This document shows positions 1 to 12,304 of a stretch of DNA of 12,710 nucleotides, piece by piece (position 1 is the first letter of the stretch; the number at the start of each line of letters is the position of its first letter). The notes beneath the pieces were generated by a model. The model ran no database searches and was not told the DNA's origin. It worked only from the letters and a program-made list of their open reading frames with translations. A program made the position numbers and the translations under genes. Origin of the DNA: a virus; the IMG/VR virus record IMGVR_UViG_3300002460_002611; one strand, given 5' to 3'.

Positions 1-1440
1 GGCAAGCTGCCCGATGAGTTCGTCCAGGAGTGGGTGAGGAAGGGCGAGGAGTTCATCGCGCTCTGGAACGAGTGCCTGTCGTTCGACCTCGTCGTGCCCT
101 ACCTCATCGACCTGGGCTACGATGAGCCGTTCTTTGGGTCCCTGTCACGTCGCATCATGAAACTGAGGTCGGCTGAGGTCCCGACGGCGGGCGTCTGCGT
201 TGATCGCGGCCAGCTGATGATGCTCTGGAACCCAATCTTCTTCAAGAAGGGTCTCGACGAGTGTCACATCCAGGGCGTCCTGAAGCATGAGCTGTATCAC
301 GTCATCCTGGAGCACATCACCAGCCGGCGTCAGACGCCCCACGTCCTGTGGAACGCGGCCACAGACCTGGCGATTAACTCACTCATCCCGCGGCAGGAGC
401 TGCCTGACTGGTGCCTCCACGCGGGTGAGATGTATAAGCCTGCGAAGGCGCCCCCCGACTGGAAGCCGGGCATCATGGCCCGCATCATCAAGGGGCTGCC
501 CAAGAACCAGAGCTCTGAGTGGTATATGAACCAGTTCCTCATGGACCCTGAGGTGCAGCAGGCCATGGCCAACGCTCGTGCTGCCGCAGGGCAGAGACCC
601 AAGCAGGGTGAGGGCGATGGTGGAGGCGCGGGTGGCCCTGGACAGCCTGGCGATGGTCAGGACGGGGGCCAAAAGAGCAACGACGGTGCATTCGAGGACG
701 AGCTCAGGAGGGAGCTCTATGGTGACGGCGGGGGCCAGTTCGACGACCATGACATCTGGGACAGGCTGACAGAAGAGCAGCGCGACGTGATGCGTGAGCA
801 TGTGCGAGGCCTGTTCAGGGACTGCGTCCGCGAGGCTGAGAGCAACGCAAAGGGCTGGGGCAACATGCCCGACAGCATCAGGGCGCACCTGAGGAAGGTG
901 CTGTCACGTGAGATCGATTGGCGTGACCTGATCAGCAGGTTCGTGGGCAGGTCAACGACGACAAAGACTACGTCGTCCATCAAGCGCGTGAACAGGCGCT
1001 ATCCATGGGACCACCCGGGCAGGAAGCGTGCCCACAGCGCCCGGCCCGTCTTTCTCATGGACCAGAGCGGATCGATGCGTGATGAATGGGTCGAGCTGCT
1101 GTTTGCTGAGGTCAGCAACATGGGCGTCATCACTGAGTATGACATCGTCCCGTTCGACCACACAGTCGATGAGGAGAACGTGCAGAGGGTGCGGAGGGGC
1201 ACGCAGCCCAAGCTTGTGAGGACGAGGTCGGGTGGGACGAACTTCAGCGCTGCGGTCGAATGGGTCAATAAGTGCCCAGGACGTCACGACGTGGCATTTT
1301 TGCTGACGGATGGCGAGTGCTTCTCACCCGTCAAGTGCAACATCCCACTGGCATACATCTTGGCGCCGGGCTGCCAGCTCCACTTTGAGCCCCCCGCCGG
1401 GACGATCGTGATAAACATGACTGACACTCGGAAGGGCTAA
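1..1440 (+). CDS. 5'-partial CDS: putative HExxH zinc-metallopeptidase-like domain (DUF2201_N type) fused to a C-terminal vWA-like domain. Reading frame is open to the window edge, so the true start is probably upstream; first in-frame GTG is at 34.
   Basis: 'HELYHVILEH' (nt 286-315) followed by 'WNAATDLAINS' matches the DUF2201 N-terminal putative metallopeptidase signature. 'VFLMDQSGSM' (nt ~1048-1077) is a vWA MIDAS-like DxSxS motif followed by the 'VPFDHTVD' strand typical of the DUF2201 vWA-like domain. A Gly/Asp-rich linker separates the two halves. No stop codon lies between nt 1 and 34 in frame. Confidence 0.8.
   Translation, partial: GKLPDEFVQEWVRKGEEFIALWNECLSFDLVVPYLIDLGYDEPFFGSLSRRIMKLRSAEVPTAGVCVDRGQLMMLWNPIFFKKGLDECHIQGVLKHELYHVILEHITSRRQTPHVLWNAATDLAINSLIPRQELPDWCLHAGEMYKPAKAPPDWKPGIMARIIKGLPKNQSSEWYMNQFLMDPEVQQAMANARAAAGQRPKQGEGDGGGAGGPGQPGDGQDGGQKSNDGAFEDELRRELYGDGGGQFDDHDIWDRLTEEQRDVMREHVRGLFRDCVREAESNAKGWGNMPDSIRAHLRKVLSREIDWRDLISRFVGRSTTTKTTSSIKRVNRRYPWDHPGRKRAHSARPVFLMDQSGSMRDEWVELLFAEVSNMGVITEYDIVPFDHTVDEENVQRVRRGTQPKLVRTRSGGTNFSAAVEWVNKCPGRHDVAFLLTDGECFSPVKCNIPLAYILAPGCQLHFEPPAGTIVINMTDTRKG
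598..753 (+). repeat. Low-complexity Gly/Asp/Gln-rich coding segment (inter-domain linker) inside the metallopeptidase-vWA CDS
   Basis: Translation 'GQRPKQGEGDGGGAGGPGQPGDGQDGGQKSNDG...YGDGGGQFDD'; the nucleotide sequence is built of ggy/gay codon reiterations. Confidence 0.6.
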
Positions 1441-2523: not shown

Positions 2524-2832
2524 ATGCTGCTTGACCTCCCTTCTACGCTCATCCCAGGCGCCCTCTATGCCCTAGAGGGTGAGATTGGGCTCACAACAGA
2601 GACCACGCCCCGAGGAAGGTCTCAGCACTTGCTGTTACGTATTGGTGCGATACGTCATGCATCGGTAGGACAAGTGGAACCGCTGGTCTTTATCAAGACT
2701 ACGTTGGCTGGAAAGAACGCGCCAGGCATGTCAATGCACTGGTTCATGTCGAGGCTGGGTCCGTGCTACAGGAACACGCTCCCTACGAGCCTTTATCTCG
2801 TGCAGGAGGTCGCTGATGCCGACAGTGAATGA
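2524..2832 (+). CDS. Member of the paralog family. The ORF track starts at TTG 2506; ATG 2524 is preferred, with GGAG 8 nt upstream.
   Basis: 'LIPGALYAL...EPLVFIKT...FMSRLGPCYRN'. The 3' end overlaps the next gene's start. Confidence 0.65.
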   Translation: MLLDLPSTLIPGALYALEGEIGLTTETTPRGRSQHLLLRIGAIRHASVGQVEPLVFIKTTLAGKNAPGMSMHWFMSRLGPCYRNTLPTSLYLVQEVADADSE

Positions 2833-3898
2833 GATTGAGAGAAGGTTTCTTGTGAAGGAGATCGATCTCAAGCATCGTGCACTCAAGGACAACAACGTCT
2901 GGAACGGGTGTGAGGTCCATCTCACGCAGGGCTACCTTGACATCCCGGGCAGCATGCGCGTGAGGTCATACACGTTCAGGGGCACGGGCCTCCAGAGGCA
3001 TGAGCTGACGAGGAAGACGGGCAAGGGCCTCCTTCGGGTTGAGCAGAATGCAGACATCTCTGCCGAGGCTGCGCAGATGCTGCTGGGCTCGACGCCCTTC
3101 ACGATCAGCAAGACGCGCCGCATGTGTGATGGGTGGGAGGTTGACTTCTTCCACGGGCGGCTTGAGGGCCTCATCATGGCAGAGAAGGAGCTCCAGCATC
3201 CCGACGAGCCTTGTCCCATTCCGCCCTGGATAGCAGATGCTGTTGAGGTGACAGACTTCATCAGCAACAAACAGCTCGCCCGAGCCGCGTTCCTGCTGTC
3301 ATCTGATGAGCCTCTCTCTATCCTTGATGCGCGTCGTCTCAGGCGCGTGGTCCTGACGGGTGCACCGTGCTCGGGCAAGAGCGCGTTCGTGGAGCAGTTC
3401 AGGGGGACGCCTGGGTTCCATTGTGTGCCAGAGGTTGCGACGATTGTCATGGGGCAGCTCAATGTCATGCCCGAGTCAGGAGCAGCAAGCTTCCAGCGGA
3501 CGCTCTACCGCATGCAGCACCTGTTCGAGGACGCTGCTGAGGTCCAGGCCCAAAGGGACGGCAACGGGACAGTGGTCATCGACAGAGGGTCGCTCGATGG
3601 GGCCGCCTTCATGCCGGGAGGGCTGGATGAATACACAACCCTCGTTCAGACAGACGCTCTGTCGGAGCTCGGCAGGTATGACGCTGTCATCTTCCTCAGG
3701 CTGCCCCCGCGTGATGTGTGGGAGAGGAACAGGGCGAACAATGCAATCAGGCGTGAGACGTGGGAGCAGGCCCTCGTGCTTGAGGAGAGGCTGCTTGATG
3801 TGTGGTCCAGGCATCCCAACCTCATCGTTGTCGGAGGCAGGCCCACGTGGGAGGAGAGGTTCGCTGACATCATTGGACATGTCAGCTGCAGGTTGTAG
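2816..3898 (+). CDS. Two-domain enzyme: N-terminal CYTH / triphosphate-tunnel metalloenzyme domain fused to a C-terminal P-loop kinase of the NadR-AAA_28 / uridine-kinase-like type
   Basis: The N-terminus 'VNEIERRFLVKEID' is the ExExK CYTH signature (nt 2831-2854). Walker A 'VVLTGAPCSGKSAF' lies at nt ~3352-3390, followed by 'VPEVAT' and an 'IDRGSLDGAAF' region typical of NadR-type nucleoside kinases. AGGAGG sits 6 nt before ATG 2816. Confidence 0.8.
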   Translation: MPTVNEIERRFLVKEIDLKHRALKDNNVWNGCEVHLTQGYLDIPGSMRVRSYTFRGTGLQRHELTRKTGKGLLRVEQNADISAEAAQMLLGSTPFTISKTRRMCDGWEVDFFHGRLEGLIMAEKELQHPDEPCPIPPWIADAVEVTDFISNKQLARAAFLLSSDEPLSILDARRLRRVVLTGAPCSGKSAFVEQFRGTPGFHCVPEVATIVMGQLNVMPESGAASFQRTLYRMQHLFEDAAEVQAQRDGNGTVVIDRGSLDGAAFMPGGLDEYTTLVQTDALSELGRYDAVIFLRLPPRDVWERNRANNAIRRETWEQALVLEERLLDVWSRHPNLIVVGGRPTWEERFADIIGHVSCRL

Positions 3899-3907
3899 GA
3901 GCGTCAG

Positions 3908-4192
3908 ATGAATGAGAAGTTTGATGTGGGAGACCTTGTCGGCATAGTGGGTGTCAGCTACAACGGGCTGTCTGACGACGGACACCTCCTGAATGGAGGA
4001 TACTGCGATGTGGGTTGCCAGTGCGGCGCCTCGCCACCCGCACACCACATGCTTCTGCTATACATGGGCAGCGACTACAACTACAAGCATTTCGAATCTA
4101 TCCATTGGTTCCTGACGCAGACGGGGGAGCGCTGCTGGCGATACTCGACAGAGCACCTCATACTCGTGTCATCACATGATGGGATGCTATGA
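3908..4192 (+). CDS. Paralog family member, Cys-rich-insert subgroup
   Basis: 'FDVGDLVGIVGV...DGHLLNGGYCDVGCQCG...HHMLLLYMG...WFLTQTGERCWRY...LILVSSHD'. AGGAG lies 6 nt upstream, and the next gene starts by ATGA overlap. Confidence 0.75.
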   Translation: MNEKFDVGDLVGIVGVSYNGLSDDGHLLNGGYCDVGCQCGASPPAHHMLLLYMGSDYNYKHFESIHWFLTQTGERCWRYSTEHLILVSSHDGML

Positions 4193-4461
4193 CGTTGGGC
4201 TTGGGCGTAGAGATGCAGCCCGGTGACCTCGTGGGTCTCGCTGGCGTCAGGACAGTCTCATTGCAGACAGATGGGTGGTTGTCTAACTGTAAGATGTGTG
4301 TGGGATCGTGTGGATGCTGGTCGGGGCAGCCGCATGTGTGGTTGCTGTATCTGGAGCGTAAAGGATACTGTAATTACTTCCTGACATCTGCGGGCTCAAT
4401 CTGCTTCCGCTACGGAAGCAGGCGTGAGTATGTCGTGGTCTCCAGAGACAGGATATTGTGA
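4189..4461 (+). CDS. Paralog family member, Cys-rich-insert subgroup
   Basis: 'QPGDLVGLAGV...DGWLSNCKMCVGSCGCW...VWLLYLE...YFLTSAGSICFRYG'. ATGA overlaps at both ends. Confidence 0.75.
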   Translation: MTLGLGVEMQPGDLVGLAGVRTVSLQTDGWLSNCKMCVGSCGCWSGQPHVWLLYLERKGYCNYFLTSAGSICFRYGSRREYVVVSRDRIL

Positions 4462-4751
4462 TGACGAAAAGTGCTGCAGACATCAAGTCGGGAGACCTTG
4501 TGGGTGTGAGATCGGGGAGCATGTTTGAGCTGGACCCAGAAGGGCACCTGATGAATGGGTTCTGTTCAAGGGTTGGCTGCACGTGCCACCATGAAGAGGG
4601 TGGGGTGGTGCACATGCTGTTGCTCTACATGGGCCCTAGCACTCACATTGCCGATGTTTCGGGTCCAGTCCATACGTTCCTGATGCCGACAGGACAGGCA
4701 TGCTGGCGCTACGGATACAACAACCTGACGCTGGTCTCATCGTTGGACTAG
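4458..4751 (+). CDS. Paralog family member, Cys-rich-insert subgroup
   Basis: 'KSGDLVGVRSG...EGHLMNGFCSRVGCTCHH...VHMLLLYMG...FLMPTGQACWRYG...LTLVSSLD'. Confidence 0.75.
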   Translation: MMTKSAADIKSGDLVGVRSGSMFELDPEGHLMNGFCSRVGCTCHHEEGGVVHMLLLYMGPSTHIADVSGPVHTFLMPTGQACWRYGYNNLTLVSSLD

Positions 4752-4752
4752 G

Positions 4753-5148
4753 ATGTTCGCCCTTACTGGGACGCTACGTTACGACATCATGCTGGGCTAC
4801 GGACACAGGCTCGTCGTTGATGTTGAAAGGGACGTCGCGAGGTTCTATGCAGCATTGGTCCCAAGGAGCGTGGGCATCAGGTCGCAACGCTATGCGCCCC
4901 ATGTGACAGTCGTCAGGCTTGAGACGCCCAGCATGATGTCTGCATGGGGCATGAGGCAGGGCCAGCGTGTGAGCATGTGGTATGACCCGTACGTCTACAA
5001 CGACGAGAGGTATTACTGGCTTCGCGTGCACTCAGATGAGCTTCTTGACGTCAGGAAGGAGCTCGGGCTGCCATCATCGAGCAGGTTGAGCAGGCCGCCT
5101 GACGGCGTCGAGTGCTTCCACATGACGATAGGGAACACAAAGCCATGA
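4753..5148 (+). CDS. Small 2H-phosphoesterase-superfamily protein (LigT / cyclic phosphodiesterase / Acb1-like), 131 aa
   Basis: Two H-x-T-x motifs flanked by hydrophobics with typical spacing: 'APHVTVVRL' (His50, nt 4900-4902) and 'ECFHMTIGN' (His123, nt 5119-5121). It starts 2 nt after the upstream stop and ends in an ATGA overlap with the next gene. Confidence 0.7.
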   Translation: MFALTGTLRYDIMLGYGHRLVVDVERDVARFYAALVPRSVGIRSQRYAPHVTVVRLETPSMMSAWGMRQGQRVSMWYDPYVYNDERYYWLRVHSDELLDVRKELGLPSSSRLSRPPDGVECFHMTIGNTKP

Positions 5149-5477
5149 GCAAAAGAGAGAAGCTGAGGCTTGCGCAGCTGGTCCAGGGCGACCTGCTGCA
5201 GCTGCGTTGCTACGATGCATCACGACTAGAGATCGGTGACAACGAAGGTCACCTGTGCGGAGACATCTACGATCCTGAACGTCATGACCTCTTCGACGCC
5301 AAGCGCTTCGACAGGTGCACCGCACTCGTCCCGTTCATCTACCTGGGTCCTCATGATGTCAAGCATTCCAACACAGCAGCCAGGCTCCTGTCACCCACAC
5401 ACGGTGTCTGCTGGCGTTATGTGTGCCATGCCCTAGAGCTGGCGCAGCCCGTGTCAGCGTGTGAGGAGGACCAGTGA
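5145..5477 (+). CDS. Paralog family member. The ORF track start is GTG 5112; ATG 5145 is preferred because it forms an ATGA overlap with the 2H gene stop.
   Basis: 'LVQGDLLQL...EGHLCGD...VPFIYLGP...LLSPTHGVCWRYV'. Confidence 0.7.
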   Translation: MSKREKLRLAQLVQGDLLQLRCYDASRLEIGDNEGHLCGDIYDPERHDLFDAKRFDRCTALVPFIYLGPHDVKHSNTAARLLSPTHGVCWRYVCHALELAQPVSACEEDQ

Positions 5478-5478
5478 C

Positions 5479-5802
5479 ATGCATATGAATGAGCTACACA
5501 ACTACAAGAGCCCGACGGGTGAGGTCTGGAACGCGGGTGACCTGTGTGCGCTCACGATCACTGGCCCATTTTCTCTACGTGTAGAAGTTGAATACGTGAC
5601 CCAGGGTCACCTTATCGGGGCCACTGGTGGCTTGGATGAGCCCCTCATCTTCTTGGGTGTGTCATACAACGATGACTACAGCCGCTTGATCGCGTATCTC
5701 TTGTCTTTTAGGTTCGGTGCGTGTTGGAGGTTTGTGTGGTCCGACCAGACGGGTGGGTTGAAGCGTGTCCAGCAGCTGCAGCCTGATGTGTCGTCGCAGT
5801 GA
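5479..5802 (+). CDS. Paralog family member. The track start is GTG 5461; ATG 5479 is preferred, with AGGAGGA 8 nt upstream and 2 nt after the upstream stop.
   Basis: 'GEVWNAGDLCAL...QGHLIGATGGLDEPLIFLGV...LLSFRFGACWRFVW'. Confidence 0.7.
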   Translation: MHMNELHNYKSPTGEVWNAGDLCALTITGPFSLRVEVEYVTQGHLIGATGGLDEPLIFLGVSYNDDYSRLIAYLLSFRFGACWRFVWSDQTGGLKRVQQLQPDVSSQ

Positions 5803-5825
5803 GTGAAGGCCGAGGAGAACGTAAC

Positions 5826-6131
5826 ATGGACAGCCTCATATGCAACGGAGAGACATGGGCGGTCGGTGACATGTGCAGCTATGATGGTAGAAATGCCTTA
5901 GGCCAGTTTTGCATCGACCAACACAACAGCTGGTATCCCAACCACCTGCTAGGCAGGCCTGCTATCCCAGAGCCCCTCATCCTCATGGCGATAGAGCGGC
6001 ATGAGATACTCACGGCTGCACACGTCGTGTGGTTCATGTCTGTGACGTTCGGGCTGTGTTGGCGCTTGGTGTGGCCGGATGATGCAGACGATGTCGTGCT
6101 ATGTCAGAAGCAGTCTGAGACTGCACCATGA
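5826..6131 (+). CDS. Paralog family member. The track start is GTG 5799; ATG 5826 is preferred, with GAGGAG 8 nt upstream.
   Basis: 'GETWAVGDMCSY...NHLLGRPAIPEPLILMAI...WFMSVTFGLCWRLVW'. Confidence 0.7.
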   Translation: MDSLICNGETWAVGDMCSYDGRNALGQFCIDQHNSWYPNHLLGRPAIPEPLILMAIERHEILTAAHVVWFMSVTFGLCWRLVWPDDADDVVLCQKQSETAP

Positions 6132-6463
6132 TGGTGCCCAGGCTTGAACAGTTCCTGCAATCACGTGATGAGACGTGGCATGCAGGCGACCTGTGCGCGT
6201 TTGTGGAAGTGCACGGTGTGGACCTCACGCCGTATGTGGATGAAGAAGGTCACCTCCTTGGCAGTCCTATTGAGCCCATGCCCCTCATCTTTCTGGGCGT
6301 CTGTTGGTCAGAGAACAGAGAATACAGGAAGGTATGGTTCATATCGCCCGTGCACGGTCCCTGCTATAGAATCATCAATGACGCATCAAGGGGTCGGGTG
6401 CATCATGTGAGTCGGGCGCAGACGATCGCTAGCGTCACAAGGAGCATGCATCATGACACATGA
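6128..6463 (+). CDS. Paralog family member (ATGA overlap with the upstream gene)
   Basis: 'DETWHAGDLCAF...EGHLLGSPIEPMPLIFLGV...WFISPVHGPCYRI'. Confidence 0.7.
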   Translation: MMVPRLEQFLQSRDETWHAGDLCAFVEVHGVDLTPYVDEEGHLLGSPIEPMPLIFLGVCWSENREYRKVWFISPVHGPCYRIINDASRGRVHHVSRAQTIASVTRSMHHDT

Positions 6464-6710
6464 TATGCCTCTTCCGGGCGACCTGCTTATGTTCGCCACG
6501 AGCAATTGGTCAGTGCCTGACATGAGGCCCAACGGTTTCCTCTATGCCCGCCATACGTTGACATCGAACAATCAGCTAGCTGATTGCTTTGAGCCAGTCA
6601 TGATGCTATGTGACGAGGAGACGACGGGTCGCGTTCACCTGCTATCTGCTAGGTTTGGTCTGTGCTGGTGGTGGCGAGATTGGCTATTGTATCGTCATGT
6701 CGGCGCCTAG
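6453..6710 (+). CDS. Paralog family member (11-nt overlap with the upstream gene; alternative ATG at 6465)
   Basis: 'LPGDLLMF...NGFLYAR...EPVMMLCDEE...HLLSARFGLCWWW'. AAGGAG lies 8 nt before ATG 6453. Confidence 0.65.
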   Translation: MTHDMPLPGDLLMFATSNWSVPDMRPNGFLYARHTLTSNNQLADCFEPVMMLCDEETTGRVHLLSARFGLCWWWRDWLLYRHVGA

Positions 6711-6740
6711 CCTGGCTCATTGGGGTGCAGCCACTTAGAG

Positions 6741-6762
6741 CAGCTGGTGACAGCTGGTGACA
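6741..6762. repeat. Perfect tandem duplication of the 10-mer 'cagctggtga' (2 copies plus 'ca') in the only sizeable intergenic gap inside the paralog array
   Basis: 'cagctggtgacagctggtgaca' read directly from the sequence; it lies just upstream of, or overlapping, the start of the 6757/6766 gene. Confidence 0.6.
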
Positions 6763-6765
6763 TAC

Positions 6766-7083
6766 ATGGGTGATAAGCTACAGCCGGGTGCCCTGCTTGC
6801 GTTAGTCATGAAGCCTGGGTTCATGCCCGCTGCGACAGATGACGGGCAGCTGTATGCACAGGGGCTCATAGGTCTAGCTGCGCCGTGGTTGCAGAGGCAC
6901 GTTGAGCCTATGATCCTGCTTGGCCGTGAGCTGATCCAGTCGCGTGTATCTTATAAGCTCATGCTGCTGTCAGCTAGTCTAGGCCCATGCTGGTGTTGGA
7001 ACTTGGTATTGAGTGATGATGACATATTTTCATGTCGCCTCATCGTGGTGAGAGCCCATCCAGGTGGAGCAACTAATGGATGA
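6766..7083 (+). CDS. Paralog family member (the track start is GTG 6757; ATG 6766 is equally plausible)
   Basis: 'QPGALLAL...DGQLYAQ...EPMILLGREL...LLSASLGPCWCWN'. Confidence 0.65.
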   Translation: MGDKLQPGALLALVMKPGFMPAATDDGQLYAQGLIGLAAPWLQRHVEPMILLGRELIQSRVSYKLMLLSASLGPCWCWNLVLSDDDIFSCRLIVVRAHPGGATNG

Positions 7084-7336
7084 CATCAACCTGGATGGCT
7101 GCATCATTGAGGCGGGCGACCTTCTGGCGTTCAATGCTCCCGCGTGTGTGGAGGACGACCAGCTCCTGCATGATACTTCTTTTGGTGTGTATGTGACAGA
7201 GCTGCTTATCTACGTGGGCGCTGAGAGGTTCCCAGGAAAACCAGACTCGAGGTTCTGGTTCCTGTCCATCAGGTTCGGCCTGTGCTTCAAATGGACGAAC
7301 AGCTACCTGACGTTGGTGCAGCGAAGGGGATGGTGA
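7076..7336 (+). CDS. Paralog family member. The track start is GTG 7064; ATG 7076 is preferred, with GGTGGAG 6 nt upstream.
   Basis: 'IEAGDLLAF...DDQLLHD...ELLIYVGAER...WFLSIRFGLCFKW...YLTLVQRRGW'. Confidence 0.7.
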   Translation: MDDINLDGCIIEAGDLLAFNAPACVEDDQLLHDTSFGVYVTELLIYVGAERFPGKPDSRFWFLSIRFGLCFKWTNSYLTLVQRRGW

Positions 7337-7445
7337 TGCACTAGACATAGAAGCATGAGCATGATGTAATCTGCATGAATTTAGAGTGAAACATCTGGGC
7401 ATGTCCTATTAGGATGATGCCACCATCGGTTTTAACCCAAGGAGG

Positions 7446-10097
7446 ATGGAATTGAGCGACAATCGAACACAGAACGAACTTGTTCTCTCGCCAGGTGAAT
7501 TTGCATTGAGCCAGGACACCACATCAGGCATCCTGAAGTGCATCACAGGCCCTGGGATTTTGCAAATTACTGGGCAGGAAACGCCCGTAGCGTTTGACCC
7601 AAAGACGGGTCGCTTTGCTCGCTGTGATCTGGCTACAGCTGTCCAGCAGTTTGCGCTTGCGAAGCAGGGCCAATATATGGTCCTTTCAAATCCGGCGCAG
7701 AACGGAAAGCAACCTGTCGTCAAGGAGAAGAGCGCAGCCGCTGAGCTCAACATGGGTCAGAAGGTCAACATCCAGGGACCCATCACGTTTGCACTGTGGC
7801 CCGGCCAGAGCGCGACAGTGATTGAGGGCCACAACCTCAGGTCGAACCAATACCTTCGTATCCGTGTCTACGATGAGGATGCTGCTCGTGAGAACTGGAC
7901 GAAGGGTGTCGTGAAGGCTGCGCAGATCGCCGGTGGCGCGTCTGATGATGCTGACGCTGGAAAGGGAAAGGCGCAGACAAAGGGACACACTCAAAAGGGC
8001 CTCTTTGAGGCAGTGCCTGGTGACCTTGCTGTGGGTAAGCACTACATCGTTCGAGGCGATGAGTTCTCGTTCTACATCCCGCCGACAGGCGTCGAGGTCG
8101 TCACGGATGACAACGGGTCCTACGTTCGTGATGCCACCACCCTTGAGCGCCTTGAGTATTGCATCCTGATCGATGAGAACGGGAGCAAGCGCTACGAGCA
8201 GGGACCTAAGGTCGTCTTTCCGACGCCGACGGAGAGGTTCTTCGAGGAGCAGGAGAAGGGGCAGCGCATCTGCTCGTTCAAGCCCATTGAGCTGAATGAG
8301 ATACAGGGACTACACGTCAAGGTCATCTCTGACTACGCTGAGGCTGACGGGACCCAGCGGAAGGAGGGTGAGGAGCTCTTCATCAGGGGGTCTGAGACGC
8401 CCATCTACTTTCCGCGGCCTGAGCATGCTCCTGTGAAGTATGATGGGAAGTTCAAGCACTTCGCCACGGCTGTCCCGGCGGGTGAGGCTCGCTACGTCCT
8501 GGAGAGGAAGACGGGCGCGATCAGGACCGTCAAGGGACCCTGCATGCTACTTCCTGACCCTCGGACCGAGGTGATCGTCAGGCGTGTCCTCAGCGACAAG
8601 CAGTGCAACCTGTGGTATCCTGGCAACCTGGAGGCGCAGCGTTACAACTCAACGTTGCGTGAGCTGATGCGTGTCACGCCCACGACGAGGCCCTCCGGGA
8701 CCGTCTCTGAGGGAGAGGTGACGAGGTCGAAGAAGGTCAAGCAGAGCACGTACGGGAACGTCTCTGGGTTCGCCGACAGCAGCCTCATCAGCTCTGACAG
8801 CGCGCTCTTTGGAACCGACGAGTTCAGCAGGGGCAGCACCTACACTGAGCCTAGGACCGTCACGCTTGACACCAAGTTCGGGGGCGTGCCCACGATCGAG
8901 GTCTGGACGGGATACGCTGTCCTCATCATCGACAAGCAGGGGAACAGGCGCGTTGAGATCGGGCCCAAGACAATTCAGCTTGAGTACGATGAGCAGCTCG
9001 AGGTCCTGTCGATGAGCACGGGCAAGCCGAAGAACACGGACCAGCTTGTGCAGACGGTCTACCTGCGCGTAAAGAACAACCAGATCGGTGATGTTGTGAC
9101 GGCTGAGACGCGGGACCATGTCAACGTCTCCTTCAAGGTCTCCCTCAGGGGTGACTTTACGGATGAGCCAGGGCGCTGGTTTGAGTGTGAGAACTACGTC
9201 AAGCTGGTGTGCGACCACGTCAGGTCGGTCCTCAAGGCCGAGGTCAGGAAGCTGAAGGTGGAGGAGATATACAGCGACCCGACGTCGATCGTGAGGGACG
9301 CCATCCTGGGTGCTCGCGGTGGTGAGGACGTCTCACGACGGGGCATGCTGTTCGATGAGAACGGGTTCCACATCCTCGATGTTGAGGTCCTCGACTTCAA
9401 GGTGGGCGATGACCGCATCGCACAGATGCTTGACAACACTCAGCACAGTGTGGTTGAGTCAAACATCAGCCTTGCCCTGGCGGAGAAGAAGCTTGAGATC
9501 GACAGGCGACAGGAGGAGATCGACAGGGAGCGCGTCCAGCTCAAGACTGAGACTGAGCGCCTCAATGCGACGACGAAGGCTGACCTCGATAGGTTCAACG
9601 TGGACCTTGAGACCGAGAGGGTTGCTCGCCACCTGAAGCTGTCGTTGGACCGCATCTCGTCGCAGATCGACGAGACGACGAAGAGGGAGGAGATGCAGGC
9701 CGTTGAGCAACGCCTCCTTGATGAGAAGCAGGGGGCTGAGCTGGCGCGGCAGAAGAAGGACGCTGACGTCAGGAGCAGCATCGACCGCGTCATCCAGGAG
9801 CTGGAGCTCGCCCGGTCACGGGAGGAGACTGAGCACGTCATCCAGAGGTTCCAGGCTGCCAACGGACCCCTCGCAGAGGCGCTGCTGGCCCTGGGCAACC
9901 AGGACACGGTCGTCAAGCTCGCTGAGGCCCTGAGCGTCCAGAGCTTCATCGGGGGCAAGACGGTCGTCGATGTGGTGCAGAAGGTCTTCGCTGGATCGCC
10001 CGCAGCGGGTCTCGTTGAAAAGGCGCTGCAACGGGCGCTCCCTGCCTCCGTCGAGGCGAACGGAGCATCGGGAGGCACCAAGCGGGCTTCTGCGTAG
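7446..10097 (+). CDS. MVP: Major vault protein (MVP) homologue, full length (883 aa): N-terminal MVP repeats, SPFH-like shoulder, long cap-helix coiled coil and cap-ring region
   Basis: Length and architecture match eukaryotic MVP (~890 aa). Collinear motif matches to human MVP as I recall it: 'LEVLSMSTGKPK' vs 'FTVLSLSAGRPK'; 'VVTAETRDHV' vs 'VITIETADHA'; N-terminal 'LSPGEFALSQDTTSGILKCITGPGILQITGQE' vs '[31 protein letters not shown]'; shoulder 'FHILDVEVLDFKVGDDRIAQMLDNTQHSVVESN' vs '[33 protein letters not shown]'. This is followed by a charged heptad-like region, 'LAEKKLEIDRRQEEIDRERVQLKTETERL...', in the cap-helix position. AAGGAGG precedes the start (ATG 7446, or TTG 7452 with better spacing). 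Confidence 0.85.
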   Translation: MELSDNRTQNELVLSPGEFALSQDTTSGILKCITGPGILQITGQETPVAFDPKTGRFARCDLATAVQQFALAKQGQYMVLSNPAQNGKQPVVKEKSAAAELNMGQKVNIQGPITFALWPGQSATVIEGHNLRSNQYLRIRVYDEDAARENWTKGVVKAAQIAGGASDDADAGKGKAQTKGHTQKGLFEAVPGDLAVGKHYIVRGDEFSFYIPPTGVEVVTDDNGSYVRDATTLERLEYCILIDENGSKRYEQGPKVVFPTPTERFFEEQEKGQRICSFKPIELNEIQGLHVKVISDYAEADGTQRKEGEELFIRGSETPIYFPRPEHAPVKYDGKFKHFATAVPAGEARYVLERKTGAIRTVKGPCMLLPDPRTEVIVRRVLSDKQCNLWYPGNLEAQRYNSTLRELMRVTPTTRPSGTVSEGEVTRSKKVKQSTYGNVSGFADSSLISSDSALFGTDEFSRGSTYTEPRTVTLDTKFGGVPTIEVWTGYAVLIIDKQGNRRVEIGPKTIQLEYDEQLEVLSMSTGKPKNTDQLVQTVYLRVKNNQIGDVVTAETRDHVNVSFKVSLRGDFTDEPGRWFECENYVKLVCDHVRSVLKAEVRKLKVEEIYSDPTSIVRDAILGARGGEDVSRRGMLFDENGFHILDVEVLDFKVGDDRIAQMLDNTQHSVVESNISLALAEKKLEIDRRQEEIDRERVQLKTETERLNATTKADLDRFNVDLETERVARHLKLSLDRISSQIDETTKREEMQAVEQRLLDEKQGAELARQKKDADVRSSIDRVIQELELARSREETEHVIQRFQAANGPLAEALLALGNQDTVVKLAEALSVQSFIGGKTVVDVVQKVFAGSPAAGLVEKALQRALPASVEANGASGGTKRASA

Positions 10098-10119: not shown

Positions 10120-10181
10120 GGCGTGAGGGTCCTCACGCCGGTGTGGGATGGGGCATCATCTTCATGGGTGGTGCCCCATCC
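10120..10181 (+). terminator. Two consecutive GC-rich hairpins immediately downstream of the MVP stop; candidate transcription terminator or RNA structure (no clean U-tract)
   Basis: Hairpin 1: 'ggcgtgagg' (10120-10128) / 'cctcacgcc' (10131-10139) are perfect reverse complements with a tiny loop. Hairpin 2: 'ggatggggca' (10146-10155) / 'tgccccatcc' (10172-10181) form a perfect 10-bp stem with a 16-nt loop, followed by 'gtgtattctgtg'. Confidence 0.3.
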
Positions 10182-10222: not shown

Positions 10223-10567
10223 ATGGGACTAAACGTGGGAGATGCTGTGCGGCCTGTCGTGGCCCTTGAGCTGAGGGAGCTTGAGGACGTCTACGGAAAG
10301 GCATTCAACCAGGCCATCCCAGGACGCTCAAAGAAGAACGTGACACGTGATGGTCACACGTTCCTTGACGGCTACCTGGGCATCTACCTCGGACCCAAGT
10401 ATCGTCAGATGCGTGACAGGCGGGGCGATGCGGGCTGGGTGCACAGGCTATTCCACTGCTTTCTGTTCGGGGGCGTGGAGGTGATGATAGATCCGCAGCA
10501 CATAGAGCTCGTAGCTGTCGAGCAGGCAGAGACAAGCGCAGACGATCCAACCGACGAGGAGGACTGA
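10223..10567 (+). CDS. Hypothetical protein (114 aa), acidic C-terminus; possibly a very divergent relative of the paralog family
   Basis: N-terminal 'GLNVGDAV' resembles the 'LNVGDLL' start of the truncated family member at 12513. 'DGHTFLDGYLGIYLGPKY' loosely echoes the GHL / LIFLG motifs. It ends in a TGATG overlap with the next gene. Confidence 0.5.
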   Translation: MGLNVGDAVRPVVALELRELEDVYGKAFNQAIPGRSKKNVTRDGHTFLDGYLGIYLGPKYRQMRDRRGDAGWVHRLFHCFLFGGVEVMIDPQHIELVAVEQAETSADDPTDEED

Positions 10568-11397
10568 TGACGATCGACATTGAGGCCGTTCCCTACAGGA
10601 CAACGCTTGACCAGATCGATGTGCCCGATGCGCTGAAGAGGCGCTATGCCTTCCACTCAGACCACGACAGGCGTCTCATGTTCGTCACGAGCCTGTTTGG
10701 CGGGCAGGGCATTGCACCATCGACAGTCACGCTGTTGACGGGCAACCCGGGCGCCGGAAAGAGCACCCTTGCTGTCCAGATGGCACAGGCATTGCATGCA
10801 CGAAGCGACTGCCTGGTCCTGTTCAACGGGCTGGAGGAGAGCCTGCACCAGACGCGCATTGTCGCTGACCGACTGTTCAGGAACTCCACACCCCCATTCT
10901 TCGTCGGGACAGACACGCTCGTGACGAGCCGGAACCCAAAGATGAACGGGCGCGTGCAGGCTGAGACGAAGTCGGGAAAGCGTCGCGCTGTGCTGGACCA
11001 CGTCCAGGTCCTTGCTGCTGCGCATCCGAACAGACAGCCCATCCTGATCGTGGACTCGCTGCAGTGCCTCGATGATGGACACTATCCCGATGGGTTTATC
11101 AACAGGTCCAGCACCCTGCGTGCATTGAAGCTCGTCAGGAGCTTCTGCAAGCAGACGTACGCGGCTGCCATCCTGATCGGGCAGGTTACCAAGAGCGGGG
11201 ATCCCGCTGGAGACAACAAACTAATTCACAACATCGACGTTCATATCCACCTGGGCATCGACACCAAAGAAAAGTCAGAGACCCAGGGCATGCGGATAGC
11301 GACGACCAGAAAGAACCGTTTTGGAGTTGCAGGGCAAACACATATCTGCAACATGTGGCCAACAGGTCTGGTCGAAGAGAACTCGTTGGTTACGTAG
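10567..11397 (+). CDS. RadA/Sms-like RecA-superfamily ATPase, core ATPase domain only (no N-terminal zinc finger or C-terminal Lon-like domain)
   Basis: Walker A 'LLTGNPGAGKSTLAVQMA' (nt ~10735-10790); 'LFNGLEES' EES motif of the KaiC/RadA clade; Walker B 'PILIVDSLQ'; 'IGQVTKSGDPAGDNKLIHNIDVHIHL' aligns with RadA 'GHVTKEGxIAGPxxLEHxVD'; hallmark RadA/Sms 'KNRFG' at nt 11311-11325. Confidence 0.8.
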   Translation: MTIDIEAVPYRTTLDQIDVPDALKRRYAFHSDHDRRLMFVTSLFGGQGIAPSTVTLLTGNPGAGKSTLAVQMAQALHARSDCLVLFNGLEESLHQTRIVADRLFRNSTPPFFVGTDTLVTSRNPKMNGRVQAETKSGKRRAVLDHVQVLAAAHPNRQPILIVDSLQCLDDGHYPDGFINRSSTLRALKLVRSFCKQTYAAAILIGQVTKSGDPAGDNKLIHNIDVHIHLGIDTKEKSETQGMRIATTRKNRFGVAGQTHICNMWPTGLVEENSLVT

Positions 11398-12304
11398 GGC
11401 AAATCTCTTACGCACATTTCTGCATCAAGCGGCATAGTTATGATGCATGAAAAGAAAAGGTCGTTCTGACCAAAGGAAGTATCACTTCACATACAAGACA
11501 ACATGCCTTGTAACAGGAAAGTACTACTACGGCATGCATAGCACAGACAAGATGGACGATGACTATCTGGGTTCAGGACAGATCCTTCGCTACTCAGTGA
11601 AGAAATACGGACCTGAGAATCACGTACGTGAGGTGTTACAGCTGTTCTCTGATAGAGCATCGCTCATCCAAGGTGAGAAGGAGCTTGTGACAGAGAGTGT
11701 GGCTGCAGGACCCATGTGTATGAACATGTGCGCAGGAGGTGCGACATCAAGGGGTGGTCCTCGACAGAAGAGACCCTACAAGCCTAGGGGACCCATGCCC
11801 GAGGAGACGAGGCTTAAAATATCACTATCGAATATGGGAAAGAAGCACAGCAAAGCCACGAGACGAAAGATGTCGAAGGCCAAGCTGGGAAAGACGTGGA
11901 CTTGGAACAAACCGATGTCAGATGAGCAGAAGAAGCAGATATCGGATACGTTGAAGGGCAAGAAGCTCTCTCCCTGGAACAAGGGGATAAAGATGGGTCC
12001 TCTATCTGATGAACAAAAGCAGAAACTTTCAATGTCCTTGAAGGGAAAAAACAAGGGCAAGAAGATGTCTGACGCGCAGAAAGAGCTTCTACGCCAGATC
12101 AATCTAGGAAAGAAGCACACTGCGGAAGCTAAGGCTAGGATGTCAGCTTCAAAAAAAGGGAAGAAAAAACCACCTCGCTCAGCTGAGCATTGTAAGAACA
12201 TGTCTGAGGCGCATAAGGGAAAAGTCCTATCAGAAGAACATAAGCGAAACATCAGTGAAGGTATGAAGATAGCCTGTGCTAAAAAGAAACAAGAGAGTAA
12301 GTGA
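11398..12304 (+). mobile_element. Probable homing-endonuclease gene insertion (compositionally distinct cassette) between the RadA-like gene and a paralog-family gene
   Basis: The AT-rich 49-nt leader (11398-11446) and the HEG ORF have a codon and GC profile clearly different from the flanks (many AAA/AAG/AGA/ATA codons), typical of a laterally mobile HEG. Confidence 0.6.
11447..12304 (+). CDS. GIY-YIG homing endonuclease with C-terminal array of NUMOD3 DNA-binding repeats (free-standing HEG)
   Basis: N-terminal 'KYHFTYKTTCLVTGKYYYGMHSTDKMDDDYLGSGQILRYSVKKYGPENHVREVLQLFSDRASLIQGEKELV' matches the GIY...YIG / conserved-Glu layout of T4 Seg / I-TevI-like enzymes. The C-terminal half has at least 6 reiterations of 'S/HxEQKxKIS.xxKGKK' (NUMOD3). 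GC content is markedly lower than in neighbouring genes. Confidence 0.85.
   Translation: MKRKGRSDQRKYHFTYKTTCLVTGKYYYGMHSTDKMDDDYLGSGQILRYSVKKYGPENHVREVLQLFSDRASLIQGEKELVTESVAAGPMCMNMCAGGATSRGGPRQKRPYKPRGPMPEETRLKISLSNMGKKHSKATRRKMSKAKLGKTWTWNKPMSDEQKKQISDTLKGKKLSPWNKGIKMGPLSDEQKQKLSMSLKGKNKGKKMSDAQKELLRQINLGKKHTAEAKARMSASKKGKKKPPRSAEHCKNMSEAHKGKVLSEEHKRNISEGMKIACAKKKQESK

Follow-up and report, generated by a model that had tools for sequence, protein, structure and literature searches.

Vaults are among the largest particles of eukaryotic cells, and no function has been agreed upon for them. The self-assembled vault cage is closed and of high symmetry, with a 39-fold half-vault. According to the literature, the eukaryotic major vault protein (MVP) self-assembles without other factors and has a cap-helix of 42 turns, and human vaults bind NAD+ and ADP-ribose in a pocket of the shoulder. 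Outside eukaryotes, bacterial MVP homologues have been described (Daly et al. 2013; Sokolskyi, 2019 preprint), and a link of bacterial rtcB-MVP operons to RNA repair is attributed to Burroughs & Aravind 2016, as cited in PMC13404743. A 2023 preprint (Santos et al.) presented "the first viral MVPs", those of the gut Caudoviricetes ctOa11 and ct2Ri15, for which an auxiliary metabolic or storage role was proposed, and putative vault proteins have been noted in Borg elements (2024 preprint). No experimental study of a prokaryotic or viral vault was found in the literature. Here we describe an MVP gene on a 12,710-nucleotide stretch of viral DNA (IMG/VR virus record IMGVR_UViG_3300002460_002611), the whole of which is called the window below. 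With phage and Borg MVPs and bacterial rtcB-MVP operons already reported, the window MVP is not unique or the first of its kind, and the novelty that a sequence-only reading of the window had implied for a virus-borne MVP falls to the 2023 and 2024 preprints. What the window adds is a well-defined lineage of phages. The genes around MVP in these phages form a compact and conserved block, where the role of a vault shell could be probed.

An uninterrupted open reading frame (ORF) of 883 codons runs from 7446 to 10097 on the plus strand. Its product is a genuine full-length MVP-family protein, in which the four MVP regions follow one another as in eukaryotes and are of nearly the same lengths. 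The coding sequence and its regions are as follows, with amino acids (aa) numbered as in the 883-residue version.

7452..10097, plus strand: coding sequence of the MVP homologue, 881 aa from TTG 7452 (883 aa from the alternative ATG 7446); Pfam and PDB matches
7473..9068, plus strand: N-terminal beta-repeat region, approximately R1-R9, aa 10-541; AlphaFold2, Foldseek match to R1-R7, Vault_3 and a sub-threshold Vault match
9078..9410, plus strand: shoulder (SPFH-like) domain, aa 545-655; Pfam MVP_shoulder, model confidence and Foldseek SPFH matches
9411..9857, plus strand: cap-helix, predicted as a single continuous helix of 149 residues, aa 656-804; AlphaFold2 and collinear HMMER alignment to rabbit MVP
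9858..10094, plus strand: cap-ring-like C-terminal region of short helices, aa 805-883; AlphaFold2 and HMMER alignment reaching query residue 848 (chain residue 846)

In Pfam, the MVP_shoulder family (PF11978) was matched above its gathering threshold over nearly the whole profile (E 1e-18, aa 545-655, profile positions 3-118 of 118), as was Vault_3 (E 2e-10, aa 497-534), while a Vault repeat at aa 284-318 fell below threshold (E 0.002). A phmmer search of all PDB sequences returned major vault proteins only (E 7e-19 to 6e-16); query residues 490-848 aligned strongly with residues 467-846 of the PDB MVP chain, and a weaker collinear stretch joined query 227-370 to chain 270-409. An AlphaFold2 monomer model was built from 49 homologues (mean predicted local distance difference test (pLDDT) 69.9, predicted template modelling score (pTM) 0.39). 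It has beta-rich repeats at aa 10-378 and 483-541, disordered insertions in the repeat region near aa 162-182 and 414-478, and a confident block from R9 through the shoulder, where pLDDT over aa 545-655 is 82-94. In Foldseek comparisons with the PDB, the top 12 matches were all full-length vault chains (E 1e-26 to 1e-21) and the isolated murine MVP R1-R7 crystal fragment was matched at E ~6e-8; the SPFH proteins flotillin, HflK/C, prohibitin and stomatin matched a shoulder-sized part only. The top homologues are all 815-904 aa long and carry both Pfam domains, except for one 1,095-aa protein with an extra domain, and many residues, along with many motifs of the repeat region, are invariant across the 49 homologues. 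Pfam, HMMER against the PDB, AlphaFold2 and Foldseek therefore agree on the complete homologue, from repeats to C-terminal region, that had been proposed from the letters alone.

Two simpler assignments of the protein were rejected. The similarity might have been confined to a generic SPFH domain plus coiled coil, an outcome that the sequence-only reading had itself named as fatal; we checked for this and found that Foldseek matches full-length vaults and that the repeat region structurally matches R1-R7. A generic SPFH/band-7 membrane scaffold is likewise rejected: the window protein has no hydrophobic segment that could serve as a membrane anchor (maximum 19-residue hydropathy, KD19, 1.18), it has no Band_7 match in Pfam, and the MVP repeats are present. 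It does share with the SPFH/band-7 cages (HflK/C, flotillin, prohibitin, stomatin) an SPFH fold followed by a long helix that serves the formation of an oligomeric cage, but those proteins are anchored in membranes and have no array of MVP repeats, whereas the window protein has ~530 residues of repeats. To eukaryotic MVP (rat, human and rabbit; PDB 4V60, 9BW5 and 9Z4W) the likeness extends to domain order, near-identical region lengths, a soluble character, a cap-helix of ~150 residues, collinear alignment, Foldseek E ~1e-26 and a retained G-[KR]-P-K "keyhole loop" motif. The differences are a Foldseek identity of just 15-17%, N-terminal repeats that are barely detectable by sequence, the two disordered insertions, loss of most residues of the NAD+ pocket, and the encoding of the protein by a phage.

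Because eukaryotic MVP self-assembles and all the assembly regions are retained at matching length, we suggest, with a probability of roughly 55%, that in the cytoplasm of the infected cell the phage MVP would multimerise, through its cap-helix and shoulder, to give a soluble cage that resembles a vault.

The flanks of the gene bear on its start and on its expression.

7337..7439, plus strand: AT-richer intergenic gap upstream of MVP, 43% guanine plus cytosine (GC) against 57% for the window
7440..7445, plus strand: Shine-Dalgarno sequence AGGAGG, 6 nucleotides (nt) upstream of TTG 7452; from sequence and spacing
10120..10139, plus strand: downstream hairpin 1, 8-bp stem
10146..10181, plus strand: downstream hairpin 2, 16-bp stem, placed where the related contigs L003, L007 and L008 have a U-tract terminator after MVP

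A start at ATG 7446 with a strong Shine-Dalgarno site had been proposed. The site is present, but it abuts this ATG with zero spacer, and the spacing of 6 nt is found for the in-frame TTG at 7452. Starting there gives a protein that is 100% identical to database protein P0001, and its N-terminus, MSDNRTQNELVL, aligns with the N-termini of homologues, MSENRAQNELVL. On these three grounds the true coding sequence most likely begins 6 nt downstream of the proposed start, at TTG 7452 (7452-10097). An exact look-up of the 883-aa product gave no match, the database version beginning at TTG 7452.

The AT-richer gap and the two stable hairpins noted earlier both hold up. Within the gap RNA structure is not significant (z 0.06) and there is no recognisable sigma-70 promoter; a search for a conserved promoter motif upstream of MVP found no alignment conservation with the related phages, and a candidate motif had no matches. 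Downstream, the two hairpins together have a folding free energy (dG) of -61.8 kcal/mol (z -3.8). In L003, L007 and L008 a strong GC-rich hairpin with a U-tract occupies the same position after MVP, and the hairpin sequences do not align. The downstream hairpin is a predicted intrinsic (terminator-type) terminator that is conserved in position. Since MVP is bounded by the two largest gaps among the window gene calls used (115 and 149 nt) and is followed by this conserved terminator, the arrangement is consistent with MVP forming its own transcription unit.

The window corresponds, with one mismatch, to positions 2550-15259 of L001, which covers 22.6 kb of a 128-kb metagenome scaffold in ENA (ERZ28563591, ANAN16-1 scaffold_174); a second sample yielded an 18.7-kb contig to which the window is identical. 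Flanks of MVP loci were read over ~10 kb on each side of the gene, which for this scaffold amounts to ~26 kb of the 128 kb (L001/L181). Upstream of MVP the scaffold encodes a MopE-like protein, HSP20, a sigma-70-family factor, a MoxR AAA+ ATPase, a zincin-VWA protein (DUF2201), a CYTH+AAA_28 protein and arrays of small ORFs; 3' of MVP come a small protein, a RadA/Sms-like ATPase and a NUMOD3 endonuclease, and then tRNA-Met and a T4 gp63-type RNA ligase 1 (Rnl1). Four of these neighbours are delimited in the window as follows.

1..1440, plus strand: 3' part of the zincin-like metallopeptidase plus VWA protein (DUF2201_N and DUF2201, phrog_1314, synteny), 532 aa at full length on the scaffold
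10247..10567, plus strand: conserved small protein of 106 aa (114 aa from ATG 10223), whose stop shares base 10567 with the start of the RadA-like gene
10567..11397, plus strand: RadA/Sms-like RecA-fold ATPase, 276 aa; Pfam KaiC/AAA_25, tblastn to RadA and synteny
11447..12304, plus strand: NUMOD3 homing endonuclease with a GIY-YIG-like N-terminus; Pfam NUMOD3, phrog_314, PADLOC HEase and motif

Three sister contigs, of 170 kb, 119 kb and 62 kb, encode MVPs with 67%, 62% and 52% identity to that of the window, and the MVP of the 62-kb contig recurs on contigs as long as 308 kb. Common to the three sister contigs is an ordered block of MopE-like protein, HSP20, sigma factor, MoxR, VWA protein, MVP, small protein and RadA-like ATPase, with variable small ORFs in between. 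The small protein, which has no Pfam, PHROG or PADLOC match, is kept after MVP in L003 and L008; in L007 it is displaced jointly with the RadA-like ATPase, an 8.5-kb opposite-strand insertion (12679-21090) with three paralogous ~800-aa proteins that have weak tail-fibre PHROG matches lying between MVP and this gene pair. The contigs of the lineage (L001, L003, L007 and L008) range from 40% to 57% GC, and MVP stays full-length throughout. Judged by the syntenic block and the full-length MVP kept across such diverged contigs, MVP belongs to the old core of a lineage of what are most probably large tailed phages of bacterial type. Retention as a core gene implies a selectable role during infection, and a phage with its host is a far simpler system than mammalian cells in which to find the role of vaults.

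The viral assignment draws on long one-strand arrays of small ORFs, the T4-type Rnl1, a tRNA, the sigma factor, HSP20, the MoxR-VWA pair, PHROG matches and the homing endonuclease. The gene for the MoxR partner of the zincin-VWA protein lies immediately upstream of the window. Jumbo phages of 190-250 kb, among them Vibrio phages and the Bacillus phages AR9 and PBS1, have homologues of the zincin-VWA protein, annotated there as a zincin-like protease fused to vWA. The window itself has a coding density of 94%, all its analysed genes lie on one strand, eight neighbouring gene pairs overlap by at least 4 nt (six of them by exactly 4 nt), and many genes are preceded by Shine-Dalgarno-like cores. 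The prokaryote-style setting that the sequence-only reading had described is thus upheld, and its placing of the gene in a bacterial or archaeal virus or mobile element, here narrowed to a bacterial virus and not a eukaryote, agrees with the PHROG matches, Rnl1, the jumbo-phage VWA homologues and the tail-fibre-like paralogues of L007; its RadA-like and GIY-YIG/NUMOD3 neighbours were also correctly named. A DNA-level search of a phage collection with the window gave no match. We considered the MoxR, VWA, MVP, small protein and RadA-like genes as a five-gene module that generally accompanies MVP, and rejected this: the module is confined to the window lineage and, in part, the more distant L122 (MoxR and RadA-like ATPase near MVP), being absent from 80 bacterial loci and most viral MVP loci.

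MVP homologues proved to be far from rare in prokaryotes and their viruses, contrary to what had been supposed. A word-indexed search found at least 5,341 clusters of relatives at 90% identity, and an exhaustive HMMER search gave, at the 50% identity level, 1,168 clusters for E <= 1e-3 and 600 for E <= 1e-30. A scan of GTDB, with one genome per species, gave 404 MVP-encoding stretches; the best 80 of the 404 are nearly all from Myxococcota (Nannocystaceae, Kofleriaceae, Haliangiales, Polyangia), often with two paralogues per genome. In IMG/VR, 209 stretches on viral contigs of up to 482 kb encode full-length relatives, and a protein search of the phage collection matched three "huge phage" genomes of 462-735 kb and no other record. 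MVP genes are therefore widespread in large phages, as core or accessory genes, a breadth that the gut-phage and Borg preprints do not describe.

In a neighbour-joining tree of 165 MVPs, which has no bootstrap values and leaves out a eukaryotic outgroup, the window lineage forms a monophyletic viral clade nested within Myxococcota sequences, and this nesting is consistent with an ancient acquisition of MVP from Myxococcota-type bacteria. The window lineage has 49-55% identity to these Myxococcota MVPs and 34-47% to most other viral MVPs. As a group the Myxococcota MVPs are its closest non-viral relatives (45-55% identity over the full length), and both have the invariant motifs GH[HNQ]LRSNQY and SFYIPPTG, but they are encoded on chromosomes of ~70% GC next to RtcB/RtcR or a Ser/Thr kinase, whereas the window gene lies in the phage MoxR/VWA/RadA-like block. 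The MVPs of ctOa11, ct2Ri15 and the Borg elements resemble it in that they too belong to prokaryotic viruses or giant elements and are predicted to have a full MVP-like fold; the gut phages are linked to Firmicutes, whereas the window clade is environmental, is related to Myxococcota and has a conserved gene block of its own. Among "bacterial" MVPs the one closest to that of the window (55% identity) is encoded by L011 (CAYLJJ010000029.1), a 60-kb contig binned as Nannocystaceae, which has 55% GC compared with ~70% for Myxococcota loci and carries a phage-type sigma factor. Either mis-binning of a phage contig or a prophage may account for L011, which might then offer a clue to the host.

In the wider family, MVP repeatedly, though not always, is embedded in RNA-repair contexts, so that a link proposed earlier for bacteria now takes in viruses as well. 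ORFs were clustered across 86 viral and 81 bacterial MVP loci, and no partner gene is universal among them. Ten loci in Myxococcota metagenome-assembled genomes (L051 3071-8460; also L028, L043, L049, L052, L053, L056, L058, L060 and L063) have rtcR (PF06956, E 9e-69) on the minus strand followed by rtcB and MVP on the plus strand, the last two separated by ~10 bp. A second Myxococcota MVP paralogue adjoins a Ser/Thr kinase, many genomes having both; this split into RtcB-linked and kinase-linked paralogues may be absent from the literature. Recurrent neighbours of viral MVPs are RNA ligases, an AAA_33 polynucleotide-kinase-like protein, several metallophosphoesterases, a nucleotidyltransferase, an RNase T exonuclease, a "cyclic-phosphate processing receiver" (cREC) protein, a flotillin-like SPFH protein and a DUF2828+DUF7788 protein that PHROGs names "RNA-binding protein". 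An RNA ligase was found in the flanks of 22 of 86 viral and 17 of 80 bacterial MVP loci, compared with none of the 12 loci of a small control set, and an end-processing enzyme in 10 of 28 purely viral lineages. A search of the PDB with DUF2828/DUF7788 (phmmer) for a likeness to Ro60/TROVE gave no match, and the zincin-VWA protein was rejected as a relative of this partner (hhalign probability <1%). Neither vault RNA, Y-RNA nor a tRNA-like non-coding RNA was found in the window or the RtcB-MVP loci.

Two viral examples of such contexts are set apart here. A clade of ~24 viral contigs (the L137-L180 group; for example L138 7219-16616 and L137 15954-21676) has an RNA-repair-like island around MVP that holds DUF2828+DUF7788 (phrog_850), the nucleotidyltransferase, three metallophosphoesterase families, AAA_33 kinase, RNA ligase, RNase T, cREC and the flotillin-like SPFH protein. 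On L107 (IMG/VR UViG_3300034196_000067, 209 kb; 9983-16825) MVP is directly followed by RtcB (12654-13835), with a full-length tmRNA at 16447-16825 and a YpsA/SLOG-family protein at 1445-2071.

Conserved residues give a further view of what the protein may do. Window positions 9018-9035 (aa 525-530, STGKPK) are the counterpart of the NAD+ "keyhole loop" of human MVP, with G-K-P-K kept; across the 49 homologues G526 is nearly invariant, and P528 and K529 are invariant. The strongest conservation in the prokaryotic and phage family falls in the repeat region (GHxLRSNQY at aa 128-136, SFYIPPTG at aa 208-215 and GPxMLLPDP at aa 364-372) and not in the cap-helix, which hints at a functional surface beyond a passive wall.

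Given the rtcR-controlled rtcB-MVP operons and the RNA ligases, end-healing enzymes (kinase and phosphoesterase), nucleotidyltransferases and RNA-binding protein family beside many other phage MVPs, a phage cage would tentatively serve as a scaffold or compartment in an RNA- or nucleotide-centred conflict between host and phage; we regard this role as a weaker proposal than the cage itself, and on balance doubtful. In the window lineage the MoxR and zincin-VWA neighbours would plausibly act as an assembly chaperone or as cargo; the other conserved neighbours there are the small protein and the RadA-like ATPase coupled to it.

Several observations weigh against this picture. The monomer model has a pTM of 0.39 and is of low confidence over aa 232-345 and 414-478. 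The equivalents of H509, R511, F522 and W545 of the human NAD+ pocket are lost, and as the pocket is only partly conserved we do not claim NAD+ binding by the window protein and treat ligand binding as a lead only. An RNA ligase occurs in just 5 of the 28 purely viral lineages. In the window lineage (L001, L003, L007 and L008) neither RtcB/RtcR, a TROVE-like protein nor a non-coding RNA is adjacent to MVP, and the one ligase, Rnl1, lies ~7 kb downstream on L001, outside the window and at about the same distance as tRNA-Met, and is absent from L003, L007 and L008. The nearest bacterial relatives of the window MVP are paralogues that are not RtcB-linked; unlike the bacterial RtcB-linked system, the window MVP has no RtcB/RtcR operon and no operonic tRNA-like RNA, and the structure downstream of it is a terminator-type hairpin. 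Common descent, and not a functional link, may be why the related phages keep the same gene order. Lastly, the ~26 kb of scaffold read showed no gene for capsid, portal or terminase, which is the main weakness of the viral assignment.

This last point also favours a reading in which the contig is an island of a bacterial chromosome, a plasmid or another mobile element and the gene simply another bacterial MVP, as does the lack of a match of the scaffold in IMG/VR and of a DNA-level match in the phage collection. We consider this highly improbable: the ~26 kb of L001/L181 hold no bacterial housekeeping genes, bacterial MVP loci look entirely different, and the PHROG matches, the jumbo-phage VWA homologues, the tail-fibre-like paralogues of L007 and the MVP relatives in IMG/VR and huge phages all mark a viral context. 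If the contig is viral, MVP could still be part of the virion or serve its assembly, as a scaffold, decoration or internal protein, and not be a free cytoplasmic cage, for it is a large, presumably self-associating protein with its own terminator, and in L007 tail-fibre-like genes lie directly downstream. Those genes, however, form an opposite-strand insertion that the other contigs lack, MVP is embedded among non-structural genes (sigma factor, HSP20, MoxR, RadA-like ATPase, RNA ligase), no structural PHROGs family matches it, and the same family is chromosomal in hundreds of bacteria; of all the readings this one has the least to recommend it. An auxiliary gene of host origin, which would boost a host function during infection by playing the same housekeeping role as in Myxococcota, with no mechanism peculiar to the phage, for example as a store of nutrients, amino acids or nucleotides, would accord with the nesting of the window lineage among Myxococcota MVPs at 49-55% identity and with the auxiliary or storage role earlier proposed for the gut-phage proteins. 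Yet the lineage has long kept MVP in its core, on contigs of 40-57% GC as against a median of ~70% GC for Myxococcota loci, the phage gene has its own conserved terminator, and storage is without direct evidence in any prokaryote. We think this unlikely, and rank it, with the virion and non-viral readings, below the vault-like cage.

The remaining alternative keeps the cage and gives it a different purpose, namely to house or regulate the zincin-VWA protein, with MoxR as a loading or remodelling ATPase, much as HflK/C does with FtsH. The MoxR and zincin-VWA genes lie upstream of MVP in four of four members of the lineage, directly adjacent to it in L008, L122 has MoxR and the RadA-like ATPase near MVP, and the shoulder resembles the HflK/C-FtsH and prohibitin cages in Foldseek; such cargo would also echo the vault component TEP1, drawn with a vWA domain in the literature. 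Set against this, L001 and L003 have 6-15 unrelated small ORFs between the VWA gene and MVP, MoxR-VWA pairs are present in jumbo phages without an MVP match, and no MVP was seen in the flanks read of 12 IMG/VR loci with the VWA protein, although these were not specifically scored for it. By profile comparison, moreover, the zincin-VWA protein is unrelated to the DUF2828/DUF7788 partner of other lineages, and a protease or ATPase cargo would seem improbable.

A fuller version of the vault-like cage can be imagined, although we hold it to be a long shot: MVP, MoxR and zincin-VWA might make up a minimal prokaryotic-virus vault that is built during infection and that encloses enzymes or RNA, or sequesters phosphate-bearing nucleotides via the STGKPK loop, so blunting host defences that target RNA or NAD. 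If true, this minimal viral vault would be the first genetically tractable, conflict-related vault function, and eukaryotic vaults, with the vWA domain of TEP1, might be suggested to descend from systems of this kind; PARP4 likewise carries a vWA domain. Compared with the eukaryotic vault particle, TEP1 (TROVE), PARP4 and vault RNA were not found near the window MVP: no window ORF has a TROVE or PARP domain in Pfam, and in the window Rfam gave no non-coding RNA at gathering score or E <= 1, save one chance miRNA match, and ARAGORN no tRNA-like gene. MVP has no match among the PADLOC defence families.

Among the other genes of the window, the RadA-like ATPase has the Walker A motif GNPGAGKST and KNRFG, and lacks the RadA zinc finger and Lon-like domain. 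The homing endonuclease is absent from this position in L003, L007 and L008, and relatives of it occur in 12 MVP-bearing viral loci, which is consistent with independent insertions of a mobile element that is not part of the MVP unit. At 2816-3898 a CYTH (triphosphate tunnel metalloenzyme) domain is fused to an AAA_28 P-loop kinase-like domain; this fusion, kept in L003, could be an RNA or nucleotide end-processing enzyme. A 131-aa ORF (4753-5148) has a weak, sub-threshold 2H-phosphoesterase match (E 6e-4). Upstream of MVP, the small ORFs (1571-1864 and 5145-7336) form tandem arrays in which the members are diverged paralogues. Approximately eight proteins of 85-113 aa with the motifs W..GD[LM]C and FG.C[WY][RWK] make up one family and three proteins (3908-4751) a second, and neither has a Pfam or PHROG match; the pattern resembles an array of diversifying accessory or anti-defence genes in a large phage.

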